Virus record (IMG/VR): IMGVR_UViG_3300029102_000023
From: a virus
Taxonomy: Duplodnaviria > Heunggongvirae > Uroviricota > Caudoviricetes
Reading direction: 5' to 3' (one strand)
Length of the DNA: 21,745 nucleotides
The notes beneath the pieces are model-generated. The model was not told the origin of the DNA. It did not search any database and was given only the letters and a program-made list of their open reading frames with translations. Position numbers and translations under genes: made by a program. Positions 2,917 through 16,973 of the stretch are shown here, piece after piece. Positions within the stretch are counted from its first letter, which is position 1. Each line of letters begins with the position of its first letter.

Positions 2917-3049
2917 TTTTTGGGACTCCTGGCTGATTAAGTATGTCGATAAGGCGTTTCCATCCGTCACGTAATTTACGGGTGATTCGTTCAAGTAAAG
3001 ATTCGGAAGGGCAGCCAGCAACAGGCCACCCTGCAATGGCATATTGCAT
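2885..3049 (-). CDS. cIII: CIII protease inhibitor (FtsH/HflB inhibitor), 54 aa
   Basis: Hand translation of minus strand from ATG at 3049: [54 protein letters not shown], stop TAA at 2885-2887; below the ORF-track length threshold. Confidence 0.85.
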   Translation of the reverse strand: MQYAIAGWPVAGCPSESLLERITRKLRDGWKRLIDILNQPGVPKNGSNNYGYPD

Positions 3050-3121
3050 GGTGTGCTCCTTATTTATACATAACGAAAAACGCCTCGAGTGAAGCGTAAT
3101 TGGTATGCGGTAACGCCGCGC

Positions 3122-4086: not shown

Positions 4087-4668
4087 ATGAACAACTCATG
4101 GTGGCAGGAACTAATGCATTTTTTCCTGCAAGGAATGACACTTAAACAGTTGATTCATATGCTAATCATCCTGATCATATTGATTATTGTTATGCCGGTA
4201 AGCGTAAAAGAATGGATAAACCTGCATAGTCCAGAAATCCTTCCTCATTACTGGATGTATTACATCCTGTTGTTTTGCGTTAGCTATGTGCTTAACGGCG
4301 TTGTTAATTCCGCTTATCACGCTGTGACTGAAAGAATTGAGGTATTCGCTGCTCAGAAGCGCAAATCTAAAGAAGAAAAATATGTGCAAGATTTGTTTGA
4401 TTCGTTAACTCTTGGAGAAAGAGCGTATTTGGCATTCGCTGTAGCCGCTAATAACCAGCTACAAACGGAAAAGGGCGCTCATGAATCAATTTCATTGCTC
4501 AAAAAAGGACTCCTCGTTCGAAGGCCTCCTGCTGTTGGATATCCTGATACCGACCGTTTCGTTATCCCTGAAAGCTATAGACATGAGTGCTACATTAGGT
4601 TTGCCGGGAAGGCAGACAGCCTTATGGATGAACTTATCGCTCAGGATAAGCATGGCAAAAACAAGTAA
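4087..4668 (+). CDS. sieB: Superinfection exclusion protein B (membrane protein)
   Basis: 193 aa with hydrophobic N-terminal segments (LIHMLIILIILIIVMPV, YWMYYILLFCVSYVLNGVV); matches lambda SieB; antisense to the pL operon and convergent with N as in lambda. Confidence 0.9.
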   Translation: MNNSWWQELMHFFLQGMTLKQLIHMLIILIILIIVMPVSVKEWINLHSPEILPHYWMYYILLFCVSYVLNGVVNSAYHAVTERIEVFAAQKRKSKEEKYVQDLFDSLTLGERAYLAFAVAANNQLQTEKGAHESISLLKKGLLVRRPPAVGYPDTDRFVIPESYRHECYIRFAGKADSLMDELIAQDKHGKNK

Positions 4669-5393: not shown

Positions 5394-6146
5394 TTATGCT
5401 GCAAGTCTCTTAACCCAAGTCTCTCTTTTGGAGAATGGTAGAACTTGGCTTGATTCATGGAAGAGTAAGGAGAGTTGTTGCATTTGATCACCAATTGCTT
5501 CGCTGTCTATAACAACAAATCTGTTGTTATACTCCTCACTTGAAGCTTTAAGATCAATTAGTTTCCCAAGCAATGAGTAAGCACTATTCCAGCTTCCTCC
5601 GTGTTTCACGCTTGATGTAAAAACGTATTTAGGTATGTCGGTTTTTATTGTTACAGGGACGGTAATTTGATGTCCACTCAAGCCATATACGTTTTCACGA
5701 AGAGAAAGTGCGTCTCTAAGCTCTGTGTGATATAGATAATCAATAACCATACTTTCAAACTTTTCAGCTTGAACTGGCTGATACCAGTCTAACGACAAAG
5801 TTGATGCGAGTATACCAGCTCTAATTATGTTCGATGTAATCGCACCGACATCCTTTTCTGTTGCCCAAGCAATGATTTCTCCTCGAGCATTGAGTTCTGC
5901 GCCTTCTTTAAGCAGTAATTGTCGTATCTCATCAAGTCGTTTTTTGGTAAGCGAGATCCCTCTTGCCTCCATATTCATTAAGGCATCGCATCTGTCACTA
6001 ACTAAATACCTACCATTGACTTCACGGATAAAGGCACCGACATGCTCTCCATCATCACAGTAAGTGAATGGACTGATAATTCTCAAGGTCTTGCCTATTG
6101 GATGGCATTCGAAACCTAGTTGTGAGATCACTGTTGAGCACATCAT
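5394..6146 (-). CDS. Unknown protein B, 250 aa (second gene of the two-gene cassette in the rexAB-equivalent position)
   Basis: Long intact ORF; ATG at 6146 overlaps the gene A stop (ATGA), indicating translational coupling; no obvious transmembrane segments; family not recognised. Confidence 0.7.
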   Translation of the reverse strand: MMCSTVISQLGFECHPIGKTLRIISPFTYCDDGEHVGAFIREVNGRYLVSDRCDALMNMEARGISLTKKRLDEIRQLLLKEGAELNARGEIIAWATEKDVGAITSNIIRAGILASTLSLDWYQPVQAEKFESMVIDYLYHTELRDALSLRENVYGLSGHQITVPVTIKTDIPKYVFTSSVKHGGSWNSAYSLLGKLIDLKASSEEYNNRFVVIDSEAIGDQMQQLSLLFHESSQVLPFSKRETWVKRLAA

Positions 6147-6700
6147 ATTCCAAACCCCATTTGCCCCGACTCATCTTCAAGCGGTAAAGGTATTCTCCCA
6201 GAGTAAGTTATGTTCAGATGTTTACAGAAGTAATTCCAATACCCTACCAGGTCATCTGGGTTTATGTCATCTTCGATTGGAAACGCTATTCTATCACTAT
6301 AGTATCCAGCTTCTTCATAGTATACATGGTAGTGAGCACCGTAAATGATATCTTGGTACTTCGGATGATCGACCTTGTAACTATTCGTGTGTTTGTCAAA
6401 GTGATAGGTATCTACCGCGAAAACCCTCTTGTTATGATAGAAAGCAATAATATTTATTTTAGGGTAAGAAATCGGGTCATCAGGTTCTGAATCCTGATCT
6501 GGTTTCCATTTCAGTTCAAACTTTAGCCCTTGTATAGGTATACAATCCTCATCCAAGGGGATGATATGGGCTTGTAGCCACATATCAGAGCGACTTGGTT
6601 TCTGTTTCCATTTAACGCCAGAAAAGTTAACTATTTTTTTACAATAAAGTACTTTATCAACTTCTACTTGGCTTGGCTGATAATCATCTATTTTTGCCAA
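6143..6700 (-). CDS. Unknown protein A, 185 aa (first gene of the cassette downstream of cI)
   Basis: Intact ORF 39 nt downstream of the cI stop on the same strand; acidic, Tyr/His-rich, no hydrophobic segments; the track start at 6700 is a TTG codon (next in-frame ATG is at codon 40), so the true start is uncertain. Confidence 0.65.
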   Translation of the reverse strand: MAKIDDYQPSQVEVDKVLYCKKIVNFSGVKWKQKPSRSDMWLQAHIIPLDEDCIPIQGLKFELKWKPDQDSEPDDPISYPKINIIAFYHNKRVFAVDTYHFDKHTNSYKVDHPKYQDIIYGAHYHVYYEEAGYYSDRIAFPIEDDINPDDLVGYWNYFCKHLNITYSGRIPLPLEDESGQMGFGI

Positions 6701-6739: not shown

Positions 6740-7399
6740 TCACCCAAACGTCTCTTCAGGCCATTGGCTGGCGATAACTTTCCCCACAACGGAACAACTC
6801 TCATTGCATGGGATCATTGGGTATTGTGGGTTTAGTGGCTGTAGAAACACCTGACCGCTATCCCTGATCAGTTTCTTGAAGGTAAATTCATCACCACCAA
6901 GTCTGGCTATGCAGAAATCGCCGGGCTCAACAGCTTGCTCAGGGTCAACCAGAATTAACATCCCGTCAGGAAAGCTGGGTTTGGAACCTGTTGGTGCGGT
7001 CATTGAGTTACCTTCAACCTCAAGCCAGAATGCAGAGTCACTGGCTTTTTTGGTTGTGCTTACCAATCTCTCCGCATCGCCTTTGGTAAAGGTTCTGAGT
7101 TCTGGAGAGAACATCCCAGCCTGAACATGAGAAAAAACAGGGTACTCATATTGTTTTTTAACTGGGGCCGATGAGTATTCGCCAACAGGTGAAAATGTCC
7201 CGTCGTGGTTGAATGATATGTTATCAATACCAAGGTATTTAAACACCACACCAATATCACTAAGAGATGGATGACGAGATCCGCGCAACCAGTGTCCAAT
7301 CCCACCCTGCGTCATACCTAGCTCTTCGGCTAACTTCTCTTGAGTTATGCCGAGCTCTTTCATTCTGGATCTAGCCAGTTCATACCATTTCATTTTCAT
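6740..7399 (-). CDS. cI: CI-type prophage repressor (N-terminal HTH, C-terminal LexA/S24-like autocleavage domain)
   Basis: HTH-like segment [23 protein letters not shown]; C-terminal domain with GNSM serine motif and downstream FKKL lysine; divergent from cro. Track ORF begins at a TTG (7441); ATG at 7399 or 7393 more likely, the latter with AAGGA 7 nt upstream. Confidence 0.9.
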
Positions 7400-7440
7400 G
7401 TCCTTATTATTACGCTCTGTACTGGAACCATCCATGCACA

Positions 7441-7510
7441 ATGTGTATTTTTACTTGTATTCGCAAAGTACATATTGTATTTTTTTATTCGTGTTTACTA
7501 TGGAGGGCAT
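7441..7510. promoter_or_regulatory. OR/pR/pRM region candidate between cI and cro
   Basis: Contains dyads TACTTgtattcgcAAAGTA (7452-7470) and AAGTACATATTGTAT (7466-7480), -35/-10-like hexamers (TTGTAT, TACTAT) and a GGAGGG Shine-Dalgarno before cro. Confidence 0.4.
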
Positions 7511-10154: not shown

Positions 10155-10595
10155 ATGAAAAAACTAACCTTTGAAATTCGATCTCCGGCACATCAGCAAA
10201 ACGCTATTCACGCAGTACAGCAAATCCTTCCAGACCCAACCAAACCAATCGTAGTAACCATTCAGGAACGCAACCGCAGCTTAGACCAAAACAGGAAGCT
10301 ATGGGCCTGCTTAGGTGACGTCTCTCGTCAGGTTGAATGGCATGGTCGCTGGCTGGATGCAGAAAGCTGGAAGTGTGTGTTTACCGCAGCATTAAAGCAG
10401 CAGGATGTTGTTCCTAACCTTGCCGGGAATGGCTTTGTGGTAATAGGCCAGTCAACCAGCAGGATGCGTGTAAGCGAATTTGCGGAGCTATTAGAGCTTA
10501 TACAGGCATTCGGTACAGAGCGTGGCGTTAAGTGGTCAGACGAAGCGCGACTGGCTCTCGAATGGAAAGCGCGATGGGGAGATCGGGCTGCATGA
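10155..10595 (+). CDS. ninB: NinB (Orf recombination mediator), 146 aa
   Basis: MKKLTFEIRSPAHQQNAIHAVQQILPDPTKPIVVTIQERNRSLDQNRKLWACLGDVSRQVEWHGRWLDAESWK... matches lambda NinB; GGGAGAGGG Shine-Dalgarno before ATG at 10155. Confidence 0.9.
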   Translation: MKKLTFEIRSPAHQQNAIHAVQQILPDPTKPIVVTIQERNRSLDQNRKLWACLGDVSRQVEWHGRWLDAESWKCVFTAALKQQDVVPNLAGNGFVVIGQSTSRMRVSEFAELLELIQAFGTERGVKWSDEARLALEWKARWGDRAA

Positions 10596-11119
10596 CTATC
10601 AAATCAAATACGCCAGCACACGACAAGGACTGCTGGCAAACGCCGCTTTGGCTTTTTGATGCACTGGATATTGAGTTTGGATTCTGGCTGGATTCGGCAG
10701 CGAGCGACAAAAATGCTCTGTGCGCTCACTGGCTAACTGAGGACGACGACGCGCTCAATTCTGAGTGGGTAAGCCACGGTGCAATCTGGAATAACCCACC
10801 GTACAGCAATATCAGGCCGTGGGTGGAAAAAGCCGCTGAGCAGTGTATACAACAGCGACAGACGGTAGTGATGCTTGTGCCAGAGGATATGTCTGTCGGA
10901 TGGTTCAGCAAGGCTCTGGAGAGTGTTGACGAAGTTCGTATTATCACTGATGGACGGATTAATTTTATCGAACCATCGACAGGGCTGGAGAAGAAGGGAA
11001 ACAGCAAAGGCTCCATGCTGCTGATTTGGCGACCGTTCATCAGTCCTCGACGGATGTTTACTACCGTATCCAAAGCGGCATTGATGGCGATCGGGCAGGG
11101 CGTCAGGAGGGCTGCATGA
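10592..11119 (+). CDS. Phage DNA N6-adenine methyltransferase (orphan, Dam-like family), ~175 aa
   Basis: Contains the N6-adenine MTase catalytic motif NPPY (IWNNPPYSN); ATG at 10592 overlaps the ninB stop (ATGA); occupies the ninC/ninD position; no adjacent restriction endonuclease gene. Confidence 0.8.
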
Positions 11120-11292
11120 GACGACAGCGACGAAGCATCACCGACATAATCTGCGAAAACTGCAAATACCTTCCAACGAAACGCTCCAGAAATAAACGCA
11201 AGCTAATCCCAAAAGAATCTGACGTAAAAACCTTCAATTACACAGCCCACCTGTGGGATATCCGGTGGCTAAGATATCGTGCGAGGAAATGA
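11116..11292 (+). CDS. ninE: NinE, 58 aa
   Basis: [58 protein letters not shown] resembles lambda NinE; ATG overlaps the methyltransferase stop (ATGA). Confidence 0.85.
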
Positions 11293-11636
11293 CAATGGAT
11301 TATTCACAGTTAAGTGATTTTGAAATTAACAGAATGGTAGGAGACATAATTTTTAAAGGCCTTTGGGCAAGTAAACCGGAAACATCAGGGAATAACACCA
11401 ACAAATGGTATTACGGAAATGCTGATACAACTTTTGAGCCATTAAATCATTTGCCTGACTACTGCAATGATCCGAGCGCTTCATGGCCGATTATTGAGAA
11501 ATACAGGATTTCTATCTTAGACCAGTTAACTGAATGGTGTGTGGATGCAAAAGGCGTAAGCCCAATATTTGATACCAGACCTCTCCGCGCCGCCATGATT
11601 GTCTTTCTCCTGATGCAGGAGGCCAATAATGCTTAG
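11289..11636 (+). CDS. Hypothetical nin-region protein, ~115 aa
   Basis: ORF (M)[71 protein letters not shown]...; ATG at 11289 overlaps the ninE stop (ATGA), alternative ATG at 11295; family not recognised. Confidence 0.55.
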
Positions 11637-11823
11637 CCCATCTCAATCCCTTCAATACCTGAAAGAAAGCATAGAGCGGGCTTCAATGTGCACAGAGTGG
11701 ATTCTATCTAGGTTTAGCGCATACAGAAGATTGCCGGTAAAGGGCATGCCAAGCAAGTCGATGCTGCATATGCAAAAGAATGCGCGCTGGAAGGTATGGC
11801 GAGAACACAGGTTATGTGGCTGA
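11629..11823 (+). CDS. Hypothetical small ORF, 64 aa (possibly part of a frameshifted ybcO-like gene)
   Basis: ATG at 11629 overlaps the end of the preceding ORF; a different frame (11718-11846) encodes ...[25 protein letters not shown] and ends in TGA overlapping the rusA GTG start, suggesting coding potential split across two frames. Confidence 0.3.
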
Positions 11824-11842
11824 AAGAGGGGGTTATTAAGGC

Positions 11843-12205
11843 GTGAATACCTACAGCATCACATTACCCTGGCCTCCGAGCAATAATCGCTATTACCGCC
11901 ATAATCGCGGGCGCACGCACGTCAGCGCAGAGGGGCAGGCATACCGCGATAACGTCGCCCGAATCATTAAAAACGCAATGCTGGATATCGGCCTGGCTAT
12001 GCCTGTGAAAATCCGCATTGAGTGCCACATGCCGGATCGCCGTCGCCGTGACCTGGATAATCTGCAAAAAGCCGCTTTTGACGCACTCACTAAAGCAGGT
12101 TTCTGGCTGGATGATGCTCAGGTCGTTGATTACCGCGTTGTGAAGATGCCTGTTACCAAAGGTGGGAGGCTGGAACTGACCATCACCGAAATGGGGAATG
12201 AATGA
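11843..12205 (+). CDS. rusA: Holliday junction resolvase RusA, 120 aa
   Basis: [100 protein letters not shown]... matches E. coli prophage RusA; start codon is GTG. Confidence 0.95.
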
Positions 12206-12342
12206 TGTTTGAGTTTAATATGGCAGAACTTCTTCGCCACCGCTGGGGGCGTCTGCGCTTATATCGTTTCCTCGGTTCTGTTTTGACCGATTACCGAATA
12301 CTGAAGAATTACGCCAAAACCCTGACAGGAACAGGAGTATGA
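12202..12342 (+). CDS. ylcG: YlcG-like small protein, 46 aa
   Basis: Hand translation: [46 protein letters not shown]; ATG overlaps the rusA stop (ATGA); matches the DLP12 rusA-ylcG-Q order; below ORF-track threshold. Confidence 0.75.
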
Positions 12343-12427
12343 AGTCAGAGATAACAATCAACTAATACTGTTTTGTTGATTTTTGCTTGTAATTGGCGTT
12401 CTGGTCTGATTTTTGTGGAGTAAGTTG

Positions 12428-12811
12428 ATGCGTGATATTCAGATGGTTCTTGAGCGTTGGGGTGCGTGGGCGGCTAATAATCATGAAGATGTGACCTGGT
12501 CGTCCATTGCCGCCGGTTTTAAGGGATTAATTCCTTCAAAAGTAAAATCTCGCCCGCAATGTTGTGACGATGACGCGATGATCATTTGCGGGTGCATGGC
12601 CCGTCTGAAAAAGAACAACAGCGATTTACACGATTTATTAGTAGATTATTATGTATGTGGTATGACATTCATGTCACTGGCAAGTAAGCATTGCTGCTCG
12701 GATGGTTATATCGGGAAAAGGTTACAGAAGGCTGAGGGCATAATTGAAGGGATGTTAATGGCATTAGATATCCGGTTAGATATGGATATCGTTGCTAATA
12801 ATTCTAATTGA
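12428..12811 (+). CDS. quuD: Late-gene antiterminator Q (DLP12 QuuD / phage 82-21 type), 127 aa
   Basis: [62 protein letters not shown]... with Cys-rich zinc-binding region; GGAG Shine-Dalgarno before ATG at 12428; the track start at 12413 is a TTG extension. Confidence 0.85.
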
Positions 12812-12834
12812 TATGCAATTGTTTACTAAAAGTT

Positions 12835-12861
12835 ATTAAAAATGGGGCGTGGAAACGCCCC
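12835..12861 (-). terminator. Rho-independent terminator candidate downstream of the porin gene
   Basis: Stem GGGGCG(12844-12849)/CGCCCC(12856-12861), 6-nt loop; on the minus strand the hairpin is followed by ATTTTTAAT. Confidence 0.5.
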
Positions 12862-12950
12862 CAAAATAAAGGGTAATATATAACAGAAGGTTTATATAGT
12901 AAGAAGCAAGGTAGTGCTTCTAAAGGAAGTGGCTTGAGGGCTCCACTTAT

Positions 12951-12988
12951 ATGTTGCGGAGGCAAAGCCTCCCGCAACATATCTTTTT
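12951..12988 (+). terminator. Plus-strand hairpin with T-run (tR'-like candidate) shortly downstream of Q
   Basis: Imperfect 13-bp stem ATGTTGCGGAGGC/GCCTCCCGCAACAT (12951-12980) followed by ATCTTTTTCG. Confidence 0.45.
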
Positions 12989-12999
12989 CGTAAGTCAGA

Positions 13000-14082
13000 T
13001 TAGAACTGATAAACCAGACCTACAGCGACGATGTCGTCGGTATCAATACCAGCTGTTTTGGTAAACTTACTATCGTCAATTAAGTTGATTTTGTAATCAA
13101 CAAAAGTGGACATGTTTTTATTAAAGTAGTAAGTAGCACCGACATCGACATACTTGACTAAGTCTCGGTCACCATGAACACCAAGGTCTTTACCTTTTGA
13201 CTGAAGGTAAGCAACAGATGGACGCAGACCGAAGTCAAACTGATATTGTGCTACTGCTTCAAAGTTTTGTGCTTTGTTTGCAATATGGTTATTACCAAAA
13301 ACGGTCATATTCTGAGTTTCAGAATATGTGGTAGCCAGATAGATATTGTTCGCATCATATTTCAGGCCTGCAGCCCATACTTCCGCATTTTTGCCGGAGG
13401 CATTGAATTTGCTCTTACCATAGGCGACCTGACCGTCAGTGCGATCTGATTTAGCATAGGTTGCACCCACGCCGAATCCTTCATACTCATAAGTAGTGGA
13501 GAAACCGAAACCATCACCATTGGCTTCAGTTACGTCAGTGCGGTCATTTTTACCCTGATACTGAGCAGCAAAGTTCAGGCCATCGACCAGACCAAAGAAG
13601 TCGTTGTTACGATAAGTTGCAACACCAGTAGTGCGACCAGTCATGAACACATCTGTTTGGGTCCAGGTATCACCACCGAATTCTGGCAGAACGTCAGTCC
13701 ACGCACCGATGTCGTATGCTACACCGTAGTTACGGCCGTAATCGATTGAGCCGTAATCACCAAATTTCAGGCCTGCAAATGCAAGACGGGTTTTGTCTTT
13801 GGAAGAACCTTGAGATTCAGCACGGTTGCCTTTGAATTCATATTCCCACTGACCGAAACCAGTCAGTTGATCGTTGATTTGGGTTTCACCTTTGAAGCCA
13901 AGACGGGCATAAGTAGTATCACCATCATCTGCATCATTAGAGGAGAAGTAGTGCTTGGCATTAACTTTCCCGTATAGATCCAGCTTGTTACTGTCTTTAT
14001 TATAAATTTCAGCTGCCTGAGCAGACATCGCCATCAGTACTGATGCAGCTACAGCAGAAATTGCCACTGTTAATTTTTTCAT
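13000..14082 (-). CDS. nmpC: Outer-membrane general porin (OmpC/OmpF/NmpC family), prophage-encoded, 360 aa precursor
   Basis: Signal peptide [23 protein letters not shown] then [23 protein letters not shown]... and C-terminal ...VAVGLVYQF (terminal Phe, beta-barrel signature); antisense between Q and the lysis genes as in DLP12. Track ORF start at 14142 is an upstream in-frame extension. Confidence 0.93.
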
Positions 14083-14450
14083 TGTACGCCCTTTTTTTGA
14101 ACTTTTATTAAAAAATGATGTCACTGCGCGATAAATATTCATCTAATCAATGTGATTATTTCAAGATGTAAGTTTTAGTTTCTCATTTAATTTGTGAAGT
14201 AGATCTCTATTTTTATCTGAACCTTTTCTATCTAATCCTATTCATGGCTCTTGTCTGAACAAAAATAAATCTATTAGCTAATTTATATTAATGGCACTTA
14301 TTTATAAGTGCTCTATAATTCTTTAGCTTAATTTAAACAAACTAAAAATAACATCGGAAATTATTAACTGGTTATTTGTTGAAGTTTTCTTATGCATTTG
14401 TGGTGGTGTTTTGAACACTCGGTGGCATTCTCACAAATATCATTTAGTAG

Positions 14451-14478
14451 TTTACGTACGTAAAAAATTGGTTATGCT
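14451..14478 (+). promoter_or_regulatory. Candidate promoter with perfect 14-bp palindrome TTTACGTACGTAAA (possible late promoter pR' or qut-associated site)
   Basis: TTTACG (14451-14456), 16-bp spacer, TATGCT (14473-14478); the palindrome at 14451-14464 overlaps the -35 hexamer; lies ~30 bp upstream of a strong plus-strand terminator and ~190 bp upstream of the holin gene. Confidence 0.3.
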
Positions 14479-14508
14479 GTTAAGAGTGGTTACTTCGTCA
14501 CACAGCTT

Positions 14509-14541
14509 AAACCCGCCGTCGAGCGGGTTTTTCCATTTTTT
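14509..14541 (+). terminator. Rho-independent terminator upstream of the lysis cassette (tR'-like candidate)
   Basis: Stem AAACCCGC(14509-14516)/GCGGGTTT(14523-14530), loop CGTCGA, followed by TTCCATTTTTT. Confidence 0.65.
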
Positions 14542-14670
14542 GAGTCTCGATATTAGCTGATAACCCAATACCTGAGTTATTCACTGACTCCGAATCTGTT
14601 ACGTTTCTGCCTTTATTGCGATACGTAGTATCCCCTTAATTTACACCCGCTTTGTCTGCGAGGTGGGGTT

Positions 14671-14886
14671 ATGAAATCCATGGATAAGTTAACAACGGGT
14701 GTCGCCTATGGTACCTCAGCAGGTAGTGCCGGGTACTGGTTTTTACAGTTGCTCGATAAAGTCACGCCCTCACAGTGGGCGGCAATAGGTGTGCTGGGTA
14801 GCCTGGTATTTGGCCTGCTGACGTACCTGACAAACCTTTATTTCAAGATTAAAGAAGATAAGCGCAAGGCTGCGAGAGGTGAATAA
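14671..14886 (+). CDS. essD: Class II holin (phage 21 S-type pinholin), 71 aa with dual start
   Basis: [71 protein letters not shown]; two TM segments; M1-K-S-M4 dual-start motif typical of holin/antiholin pairs. Confidence 0.9.
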
Positions 14887-15383
14887 TGCCTCCATCATTA
14901 CGAAAAGCCGTTGCTGCTGCTATTGGTGGCGGAGCAATTGCTATAGCATCAGTGTTAATCACTGGCCCAAGTGGTAACGATGGTCTGGAAGGTGTCAGCT
15001 ACATACCATACAAAGATATTGTTGGTGTATGGACTGTATGTCACGGGCATACAGGAAAAGACATCATGCTCGGTAAAACGTATACCAAAGCAGAATGCAA
15101 AGCCCTCCTGAATAAAGACCTTGCCACGGTCGCCAGACAAATTAACCCGTACATCAAAGTCGATATACCGGAAACAATGCGCGGCGCTCTTTACTCATTC
15201 GTTTACAACGTGGGTGCTGGCAATTTCAGAACATCGACGCTTCTTCGCAAAATAAACCAGGGCGATATCAAAGGCGCATGTGATCAGCTACGTCGCTGGA
15301 CATATGCTGGCGGTAAGCAATGGAAAGGTCTCATGACTCGTCGTGAGATTGAGCGTGAAATCTGTTTGTGGGGTCAGCAATGA
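14886..15383 (+). CDS. rrrD: SAR endolysin (lysozyme, phage 21 R-type)
   Basis: 165 aa with N-terminal Gly/Ala-rich signal-anchor-release segment ([20 protein letters not shown]) followed by a lysozyme-like domain; start overlaps the holin stop. Confidence 0.92.
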
Positions 15384-15841
15384 ACAGAGTAACCGCGATT
15401 ATCTCCGCTCTGGTTATCTGCATCATCGTCTGCCTGTCATGGGCTGTTAATCATTACCGTGATAACGCCATTACCTACAAAGCCCAGCGCGACAAAAATG
15501 CCAGAGAACTGACGCTGGCGAACGCGGCAATTACTGACATACAGATGCGTCAGCGTGATGTTGCTGCGCTCGATGCAAAATACACGAAGGAGTTAGCTGA
15601 TGCGAAAGCTGAAAATGATGCTCTGCGTGATGATGTTGCCGCTGGTCGTCGTCGGTTGCACATCAAAGCAGTCTGTCAGTCAGTGCGTGAAGCCACCACC
15701 GCCTCCGGCGTGGATAATGCAGCCTCCCCCCGACTGGCAGACACCGCTGAACGGGATTATTTCACCCTCAGAGAGAGGCTGATCACTATGCAAAAACAAC
15801 TGGAAGGAACCCAGAAGTATATTAATGAGCAGTGCAGATAG
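15380..15841 (+). CDS. rzpD: Spanin inner-membrane subunit Rz (i-spanin), 153 aa
   Basis: [26 protein letters not shown]... N-terminal TM segment then coiled-coil-like region; ATG at 15380 overlaps the endolysin stop (ATGA). Confidence 0.9.
15600..15782 (+). CDS. rzoD: Spanin outer-membrane lipoprotein subunit Rz1 (o-spanin), embedded in Rz in the +1 frame
   Basis: [23 protein letters not shown]... lipobox VVGC; proline-rich ([15 protein letters not shown]); fully nested within Rz. Confidence 0.85.
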
Positions 15842-15872: not shown

Positions 15873-16166
15873 TTATTGTGAGCAATACACACGCGCTTCC
15901 AGCGGAGTATAAATGCCTAAAGTAATAAAACCGAGCAATCCATTTACGAATGTTTGCTGGGTTTCTGTTTTAACAACATTTTCTGCACCACCACAAATTT
16001 TTGCTGCATCGACAGTTTTCTTCTGCCCAATTCCCGAAACGAAGAAATGATGGGTGATGGTTTCCTTTGGTGTTACTGCTGTAGGTTTGTTTCCAACAGT
16101 AAACGTCTGTTGAGCACATCCTGTAATAAGCATTGCCAGAGCGGCAGAAAACAACATTTTTTTCAT
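15873..16166 (-). CDS. bor: Bor lipoprotein (serum-resistance moron), 97 aa
   Basis: MKKMLFSAALAMLITGCAQQTFTVGNKPTAVTPKETITHHFFVSGIGQKKTVDAAKICGGAENVVKTETQQTFVNGLLGFITLGIYTPLEARVYCSQ; lipobox ITGC; matches lambda Bor. Confidence 0.9.
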   Translation of the reverse strand: MKKMLFSAALAMLITGCAQQTFTVGNKPTAVTPKETITHHFFVSGIGQKKTVDAAKICGGAENVVKTETQQTFVNGLLGFITLGIYTPLEARVYCSQ

Positions 16167-16646
16167 CTTATTATCCTGCATTGTTAAAAACGGCAGAATC
16201 CTATGTGACAACAATTAAACGATAGTTAAATGGATTGATGAAAATTAAAACTACACAGGTGGGCTCAGACTATTGGAGGAAGTTGGGGACACTCAGAATC
16301 CTGTGGAATGAAATAAACCGGTCTATCCGTCCATTACCCTTTTAGCTGCGCTGTATCGTCGCCGTATTCCCGCATTAACCATGACCGTAGCCCGACGGGG
16401 AATTCCTTCTGCGTGAGTGTGCGGGAATAATTAAAAACGATGCACACCGGGTTTTTACCGCGTTAATGATTCGCGGGTTTATCCCGGTGCGATGGTGGAA
16501 GAAACAGGAAGCTGTATTACAGAAAGTGCTACTACTGTATCCCGATGCGATGTATGTAATGTGAGTCAGATAATGGCACAGGATGTGGTGATGTGGCAGT
16601 CTGGAACACAGGATATATTGTCAGAATAAGACCCGTAGGAATAAAA

Positions 16647-16973
16647 ATGAAAAGACGCCTTTTACTACTTTTTCTGTTATCTGTCCTGGCAGTGGGATGC
16701 TCGCAGCAAAAAGCTGATGAGCCCCGGCAATTAGTGACGGTGTATCCACGATATCCGGAATATGCTGCAGCAAATTATATCAAGGGGCTGGTTGAGGTTA
16801 AGTTCGATATTGGTGCTGATGGGACTGTGACACGGATCGTTTTTCTCCGCTCAGAGCCTCATAATTTGTTTCGTGATGAAGTGGTGAAGGCCATGGCGAA
16901 ATGGCGATTTGAAAAGAATCGCCCCTGTCAGGGAGTGAAGAGACAATTTATCTTTACGCCGTCACGTCCTTGA
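16647..16973 (+). CDS. Lipoprotein with TonB C-terminal-like domain, 108 aa (prophage moron)
   Basis: Signal peptide plus lipobox MKRRLLLLFLLSVLAVGC; mature region YPRYPEYAAANYIKGLVEVKFDIGADGTVTRIVFLRSEPHNLFRDEVVKAMAKWRFEK resembles the TonB C-terminal fold motif pattern; domain call is from motif resemblance only. Confidence 0.6.
   Translation: MKRRLLLLFLLSVLAVGCSQQKADEPRQLVTVYPRYPEYAAANYIKGLVEVKFDIGADGTVTRIVFLRSEPHNLFRDEVVKAMAKWRFEKNRPCQGVKRQFIFTPSRP

Follow-up and report, generated by a model that had tools for sequence, protein, structure and literature searches.

The window, by which we mean the whole stretch of 21,745 nucleotides that was analysed, carries on its minus strand a porin gene of the Lc/NmpC type at positions 13000–14082 (360 aa plus stop). 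The minus-strand open reading frame here runs from 14142 to 13000 and would encode 380 aa, and starting from the ATG at 14082 gives the 360-aa protein. Inspection of the 38 nt that precede this ATG located a Shine-Dalgarno sequence, AAGGG (14089–14093, minus strand), 7 nt before it. The ATG at 14142 was also considered as a start and was rejected, as it has no Shine-Dalgarno sequence and overlaps the candidate promoter. The RefSeq annotation of E. coli Nissle 1917 holds the same 1083-nt gene, and the limits given for the gene in an earlier sequence-only reading of this DNA coincide exactly with the frame that starts at ATG 14082.

Porin sequence and family

The protein matches the Pfam Porin_1 profile from end to end (1–337 of 337; E=1.9e-151; 504.7 bits against a cutoff of 23.7), and it scores 521 bits with the NCBIfam model of the OmpC subfamily, above the cutoff of 484. 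Residues 24–360 align to the solved chains of OmpC, OmpK36, OmpF and PhoE, with E=1e-137 for trimeric porins. The first 23 residues (14014–14082, minus strand; cleavage AQA/AEIYNK) are identical to the sig_peptide annotated for lc of phage PA-2 (GenBank J02580), and mature OmpC aligns from residue 24, so that we read them as a cleavable Sec signal peptide. The loop-3 pore motif PEFGGD is present (VLPEFGGDT, residues 131–139), and the C-terminus is VYQF, with a terminal Phe. Identity to K-12 OmpC is 63% over the full length, PEFGGD and the C-terminal YQF being common to both, and from this identity and the matches to solved porins a 16-stranded β-barrel and a trimer-forming pore would be expected. 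Along 13000–14082 no frameshift or insertion was seen. Thus, the description of the product as a full-length porin of the OmpC/OmpF/NmpC family, with a signal peptide and a C-terminal Phe and encoded by an intact gene, was correct: the profile match is complete, the subfamily score exceeds its cutoff, the protein ends in YQF and the frame is uninterrupted. The alternative that the frame arose by chance or is a decayed pseudogene, for which we found no supporting point, is refuted by the same full-length profile match, the alignment to solved porins and the lack of interruption, and its probability is close to nil.

Comparison with named porins places the protein more closely. Lc (protein 2) of PA-2 has 92% amino acid identity to the window porin. 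The two differ in 34 alignment columns, two short deletions among them, and just two differing positions lie in the first 181 residues, the pore loop region included; barrel and pore loop are identical. The differences cluster at residues 182–187, 217–227, 263–267, 303/306 and 335–347, which we take, from the loop numbering of OmpF and OmpC, to be surface loops L4–L8. NmpC of the cryptic K-12 prophage DLP12 (qsr') is 93% identical over the part that is present; there nmpC is a pseudogene, split by an IS5 close to the 3′ end, and in the 434B hybrid the porin gene is split by IS5 as in K-12, whereas the window copy is unsplit and intact. NmpC of P7, a P1-family plasmid prophage, is 81% identical, and its gene occupies a slot between odaA and ssb in a phage of an unrelated type. 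In contrast to the chromosomal OmpC, OmpK36, OmpF and PhoE, the window porin has a shorter L4 and other surface loops, is borne by a prophage and has an annotated CRP site upstream; PGAP nevertheless labels it ‘porin OmpC’.

Position in the prophage and the probable late promoter

The source element is a lambda-like prophage. Genes or elements for exo/RecT, the cIII thermoregulator, SieB, a cI-type repressor, cro, cII, O and P are found in the left part of the window, and those for terminase and portal in its right part. The cIII thermoregulator RNA (Rfam Lambda_thermo; 3004–3062, minus strand) is a full-length match at 88.5 bits, which confirms a lambda-type early left operon. The SieB superinfection-exclusion gene (4087–4668, plus strand; Pfam SieB, E=9e-22) is a further exclusion function of this prophage, distinct from the porin locus. 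Two overlapping minus-strand genes (5394–6146 and 6143–6700), one with a DUF1828 match and one with a weak DUF6978 match, adjoin the cI-type repressor (6740–7441) at the place of rexAB in lambda, and this pair may be defence genes of the immunity region.

To the left of the porin lie genes for Dam methylase, NinX, RusA and the antiterminator Q (12413–12811, plus strand), the last a distant relative of Q21, and to its right lie a P21-type holin (14671–14886), an endolysin/lysozyme and Rz/Rz1 (14671–15841 in all, plus strand). The porin is thus located, as had been claimed, between Q and the lysis cassette. The accompanying claim that it is antisense to all surrounding late genes holds for Q and the lysis genes but not for bor (15873–16214; Pfam Lambda_Bor), which comes right after Rz and shares the minus strand with the porin. 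The product of bor is a lipoprotein of the Bor/Iss family, annotated as ‘iss’ (increased serum survival) in Nissle 1917, and the gene is a second moron on the strand of the first. Further to the right, an ORF at 16593–16973 (plus strand) encodes a TonB C-terminal domain only; in the lysogen LF82, transcription of the ‘TonB fragment’ of prophage Perceval exceeded the background 8-fold (PMC9928086).

The order Q, porin (minus strand), S R Rz and bor (minus strand) is common to the window, DLP12 and PA-2. In DLP12 the genes are rusA, ylcG, quuD, nmpC (minus strand), essD, rrrD, rzpD and borD (minus strand), and in PA-2 lc is divergent from the lysis genes as here. Judged by its identity, its position between Q and the lysis genes and its opposite orientation, the window porin is the Lc/NmpC prophage porin module. 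This element has been described since the work on PA-2 and nmpC in the 1970s and 1980s; thousands of genome annotations include it, and its expression is already known. The sequence-only reading missed this textbook, already annotated status. Its observation is confirmed, but the porin module that it singled out is known, annotated and experimentally studied.

A promoter scan gave a probable late promoter pR′ at 14291–14319 (plus strand; ATGGCA, 17 nt, TATAAT; 10/12 matches), and a terminator scan gave a probable tR′ at 14509–14540 (plus strand), between pR′ and the holin gene S and ∼140 nt before the latter. The promoter would be pR′ by its position, ∼190–215 nt upstream of the putative tR′, and a promoter and terminator placed in this way before the holin gene resemble the pR′–tR′ arrangement known from lambda. 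The porin appears to sit between Q and this late promoter, back to back with pR′. Because it lies upstream of the probable late promoter, it would be outside the late transcription unit. Within the spacer of the pR′-like promoter we also noticed a perfect 18-bp palindrome, GCACTTAT-TT-ATAAGTGC (14294–14311, plus strand), whose counterparts in PA-2 and DLP12 are imperfect; Q or another regulator could bind here.

A 60-bp element comprising tR′ is also present ∼150 nt upstream of the holin gene of SfIV, and SfII and phage cdtI also have a match to it; these three phages, of which SfII and SfIV are Shigella phages, gave no porin match in either search. Among the matches listed, this 60-bp terminator piece is the only part of 14230–14700 that is common to porin-free phages. 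No porin-free ‘empty site’ was found, as every listed record covering at least 80% of 14230–14700 is also among the porin matches. In the stretch of SfIV that was examined, the corresponding slot, which precedes the shared terminator and holin gene, is taken by another minus-strand gene, annotated as hypothetical (positions 1–1050; at least 350 aa). The slot upstream of the late terminator and holin may be a general insertion point for morons.

Signals upstream and downstream of the porin gene

A strict sigma-70 scan of the minus strand upstream of the porin found no promoter. A relaxed hexamer scan gave a weak candidate, TTGAAA-18 nt-GAATAT (14135–14164, minus strand; 8/12 matches), and its TTGAAA and the downstream CGCAGTGAC block are kept in PA-2, DLP12 and nmpC of phage P7. 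A predicted CRP site, ATAGAGATCTACTTCACAAAT (14190–14210, minus strand), lies ∼72 nt upstream of the inferred start of porin transcription and is identical to the 21-bp site annotated upstream of lc in J02580. P7 nmpC retains the promoter core and has a perfect TGTGA-N6-TCACA at the position aligned to this site. The upstream region as a whole is ∼90% conserved in comparison with PA-2 and DLP12, and the G+C content of the 500 bp upstream of the porin is only 30%. Transcription of the porin gene may be dependent on CRP.

Within the gene, the motif CAGTGGC (14063–14069, minus strand), which spans porin codons 5–7, is presumably the complement of the 5′-end of RybB. It fits the report that nmpC mRNA is a target of this RNA (PMC3333887).

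Downstream of the gene, the terminator scan called an intrinsic terminator of the porin transcript at 12838–12861 (minus strand), which consists of a G+C-rich hairpin, GGGGCGTTTCCACGCCCC (12844–12861), followed by the T-run ATTTTT, and starts 140 nt past the porin stop codon. The terminator of its own that the sequence-only reading had assigned to the porin is therefore present, and it is conserved in DLP12, PA-2, phage Kati and P7. Together with the preceding sequence it forms a structured 3′UTR of 162 nt (12838–12999, minus strand) with ∼93% identity to the sequence downstream of DLP12 nmpC, and conservation in PA-2 and Kati is similar. Comparison of its folding with shuffled controls gave z=−7.0. 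In P7 nmpC the 3′UTR sequence has largely diverged, and it keeps the same hairpin layout with a z of −7.35 for its own fold. A covariation test on three sequences, which were too few and were misaligned in hairpins 1 and 3, found a few compensatory changes; it shows only that the hairpin layout is kept, as the separate fold of P7 confirms.

IpeX is a 167-nt RNA of DLP12 (PMC12197685). It is transcribed from the phage porin promoter within the porin transcript, undergoes processing and lowers the production of OmpC and OmpF (PMC12197685; PMC5069750; PMC7177473; PMC3333887). In the PA-2 and DLP12 homologues the effect on host porins has been attributed to the IpeX RNA and not to the porin protein (PMC12197685; PMC5069750). 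From the conservation of the 3′UTR and the published description of IpeX, we read 12838–12999 as the IpeX counterpart, an assignment made by sequence identity to DLP12 and from secondary literature, with 162 nt here compared with the 167 nt reported. By analogy, the 3′UTR of the present copy would repress OmpC and OmpF. When the window was scanned with Rfam to look for a known sRNA in the 3′UTR, the lambda cIII thermoregulator was the only hit; IpeX has no Rfam family.

Direct reading and folding also revealed a long hairpin just after the porin stop codon (12949–12982), which on the plus strand is followed by CTTTTT and may serve as a plus-strand terminator of rightward transcription that has passed Q. 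This hairpin was not called by the terminator scanner, probably because of a bulge in its stem.

Expression and proposed role of the module

Over the 1.9 kb around the porin gene the window is 100% identical to phages ev017 and PhiR57_1, the latter an inducible phage, and the 1.4 kb that comprise the gene and its upstream region (13000–14400) are 100% identical to the chromosome of Nissle 1917. The window as a whole shares 99.9% identity with PhiR57_1 and with prophages of CFT073, ABU 83972 and other human isolates. Bases 1–205 of the window are not covered by the phage records, which are otherwise 99.9–100% identical, or by most genome records; in these, matches begin at base 206. The right end of PhiR57_1 (10299–13748 of the stretch examined) carries the sitABCD manganese/iron transporter operon, which is also reported for Perceval. 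The porin gene region was matched in 3154 of 5426 complete E. coli genomes, with 653 records at 99% identity or above. The exact protein is found on at least 1000 contigs, under the label ‘porin OmpC’ or ‘outer membrane porin protein LC’. Such conservation of the protein at 100%, across many phages and at least 1000 contigs, argues for purifying selection.

Copies with no difference of substance from that in the window are expressed. The NmpC protein of Perceval is 100% identical to the window porin, and its gene, annotated ‘outer membrane porin NmpC’, was transcribed 10-fold above the prophage background in the LF82 lysogen and counted among the morons (PMC9928086). CFT073 has a prophage with 99.9% identity over the window. 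In this strain, RNA and protein of nmpC/c1560 and c2348 are both made preferentially at 37°C, and ompC is favoured at 23°C and falls at 37°C (PMC12890032); the window copy corresponds to locus c1560 and not c2348, as assigned by map position only. Moreover, outer-membrane proteomics detected NmpC in 89% of UPEC isolates (PMC9609314). Taken with the conservation of the protein, these reports make it improbable that the gene is intact but silent, a passenger without phenotype, even though the weak promoter hexamers (8/12) and the upstream G+C content of 30%, which is typical of H-NS-silenced DNA, would suit a quiescent gene, and nmpC is called quiescent in E. coli B in the title of Prilipov et al. 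1998, as cited in PMC3333887. The proposal that the porin is a lysogenic-conversion moron is supported by its own terminator, the conserved upstream region with the CRP site and a candidate promoter, and the transcription of the identical Perceval gene in a lysogen (PMC9928086).

The explanation that we favour, at a probability of roughly 85%, is that the locus is a self-contained moron of the Lc/NmpC type, located in a lambda-like prophage in the slot that separates Q from the probable late promoter, and that it would bring about a porin swap by way of its IpeX-type 3′UTR. In the lysogen, the porin would be transcribed leftward from its own promoter with the CRP site in the 30% G+C region. 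The precursor would be exported by means of its Sec signal peptide, and the mature protein would be expected to insert as a trimeric, 16-stranded general diffusion porin. The same transcript would bear the 162-nt structured 3′UTR that corresponds to IpeX, and this RNA, as in the DLP12 and PA-2 homologues, would lower host OmpC and OmpF. The net outcome would be a swap of porins, in which the phage porin keeps the outer membrane permeable and the host porins, which are receptors for phages and colicins, are reduced.

An exclusion function of the porin locus, which the sequence-only reading had raised, is plausible, and any exclusion probably acts through the 3′UTR RNA and not through the porin protein, as the homologous systems suggest. 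The receptor of PA-2 is OmpC, and production of Lc accompanies the loss of OmpC. The C-terminus of the J protein of PhiR57_1, the full-length relative, is 100% identical to that of phage 21 J and 56–57% identical to those of lambda and 434 J, and a literature search for the phage 21 receptor returned nothing usable. The identical porin is found with at least five different J tips (receptor-binding domains). With a phage 21-type J tip in this relative, and with the porin paired with several J types, self-exclusion by loss of OmpC is unsupported for the phage of the window.

The association with many receptor-binding domains, which does not tie the porin to one receptor, speaks for a rival reading in which the porin serves host fitness alone, through permeability to nutrients or antibiotics, tolerance of heat or growth at 37°C in the host. 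It would then have no part in exclusion, and the 3′UTR would provide only mRNA stability and termination. In UPEC the porin is thermoregulated and linked to heat resistance (PMC12890032) and is common in outer membranes (PMC9609314), and the levels of ipeX in clinical isolates did not explain the levels of OmpC (PMC7177473). However, the conservation of the 3′UTR exceeds the need of a plain terminator, its multi-hairpin layout is kept in P7, and the homologous RNA was reported to repress ompC and ompF (PMC12197685; PMC5069750). A general fitness role is a live alternative, which we consider rather unlikely.

The porin swap that we favour may take a particular form in strains of the ST73 lineage (CFT073, Nissle 1917 and ABU 83972), and we suggest this form tentatively, as a rather unlikely one. 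There, the porin and its IpeX-type 3′UTR might act as a switch controlled by temperature and CRP, in which de-repression of the AT-rich promoter at 37°C would raise the phage porin, and its 3′UTR RNA would lower OmpC. Such a switch, if true, would explain why OmpC thermoregulation runs in opposite directions in CFT073 and K-12 (PMC12890032).

What is added here to the known module is its IpeX-type 3′UTR, the conservation of the CRP site and a probable location outside the late operon. The copy in the window resides in strains of clinical or commercial relevance (CFT073, ABU 83972 and Nissle 1917), and prophage porins alter both passage through the outer membrane and the surface that phages, colicins and antibodies encounter. 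The attached 3′UTR RNA is a likelier agent of any effect on host porins than the porin protein. If the ST73 switch is true, variation confined to the surface loops would mean that each prophage allele shows a different surface to phages, colicins and antibodies.
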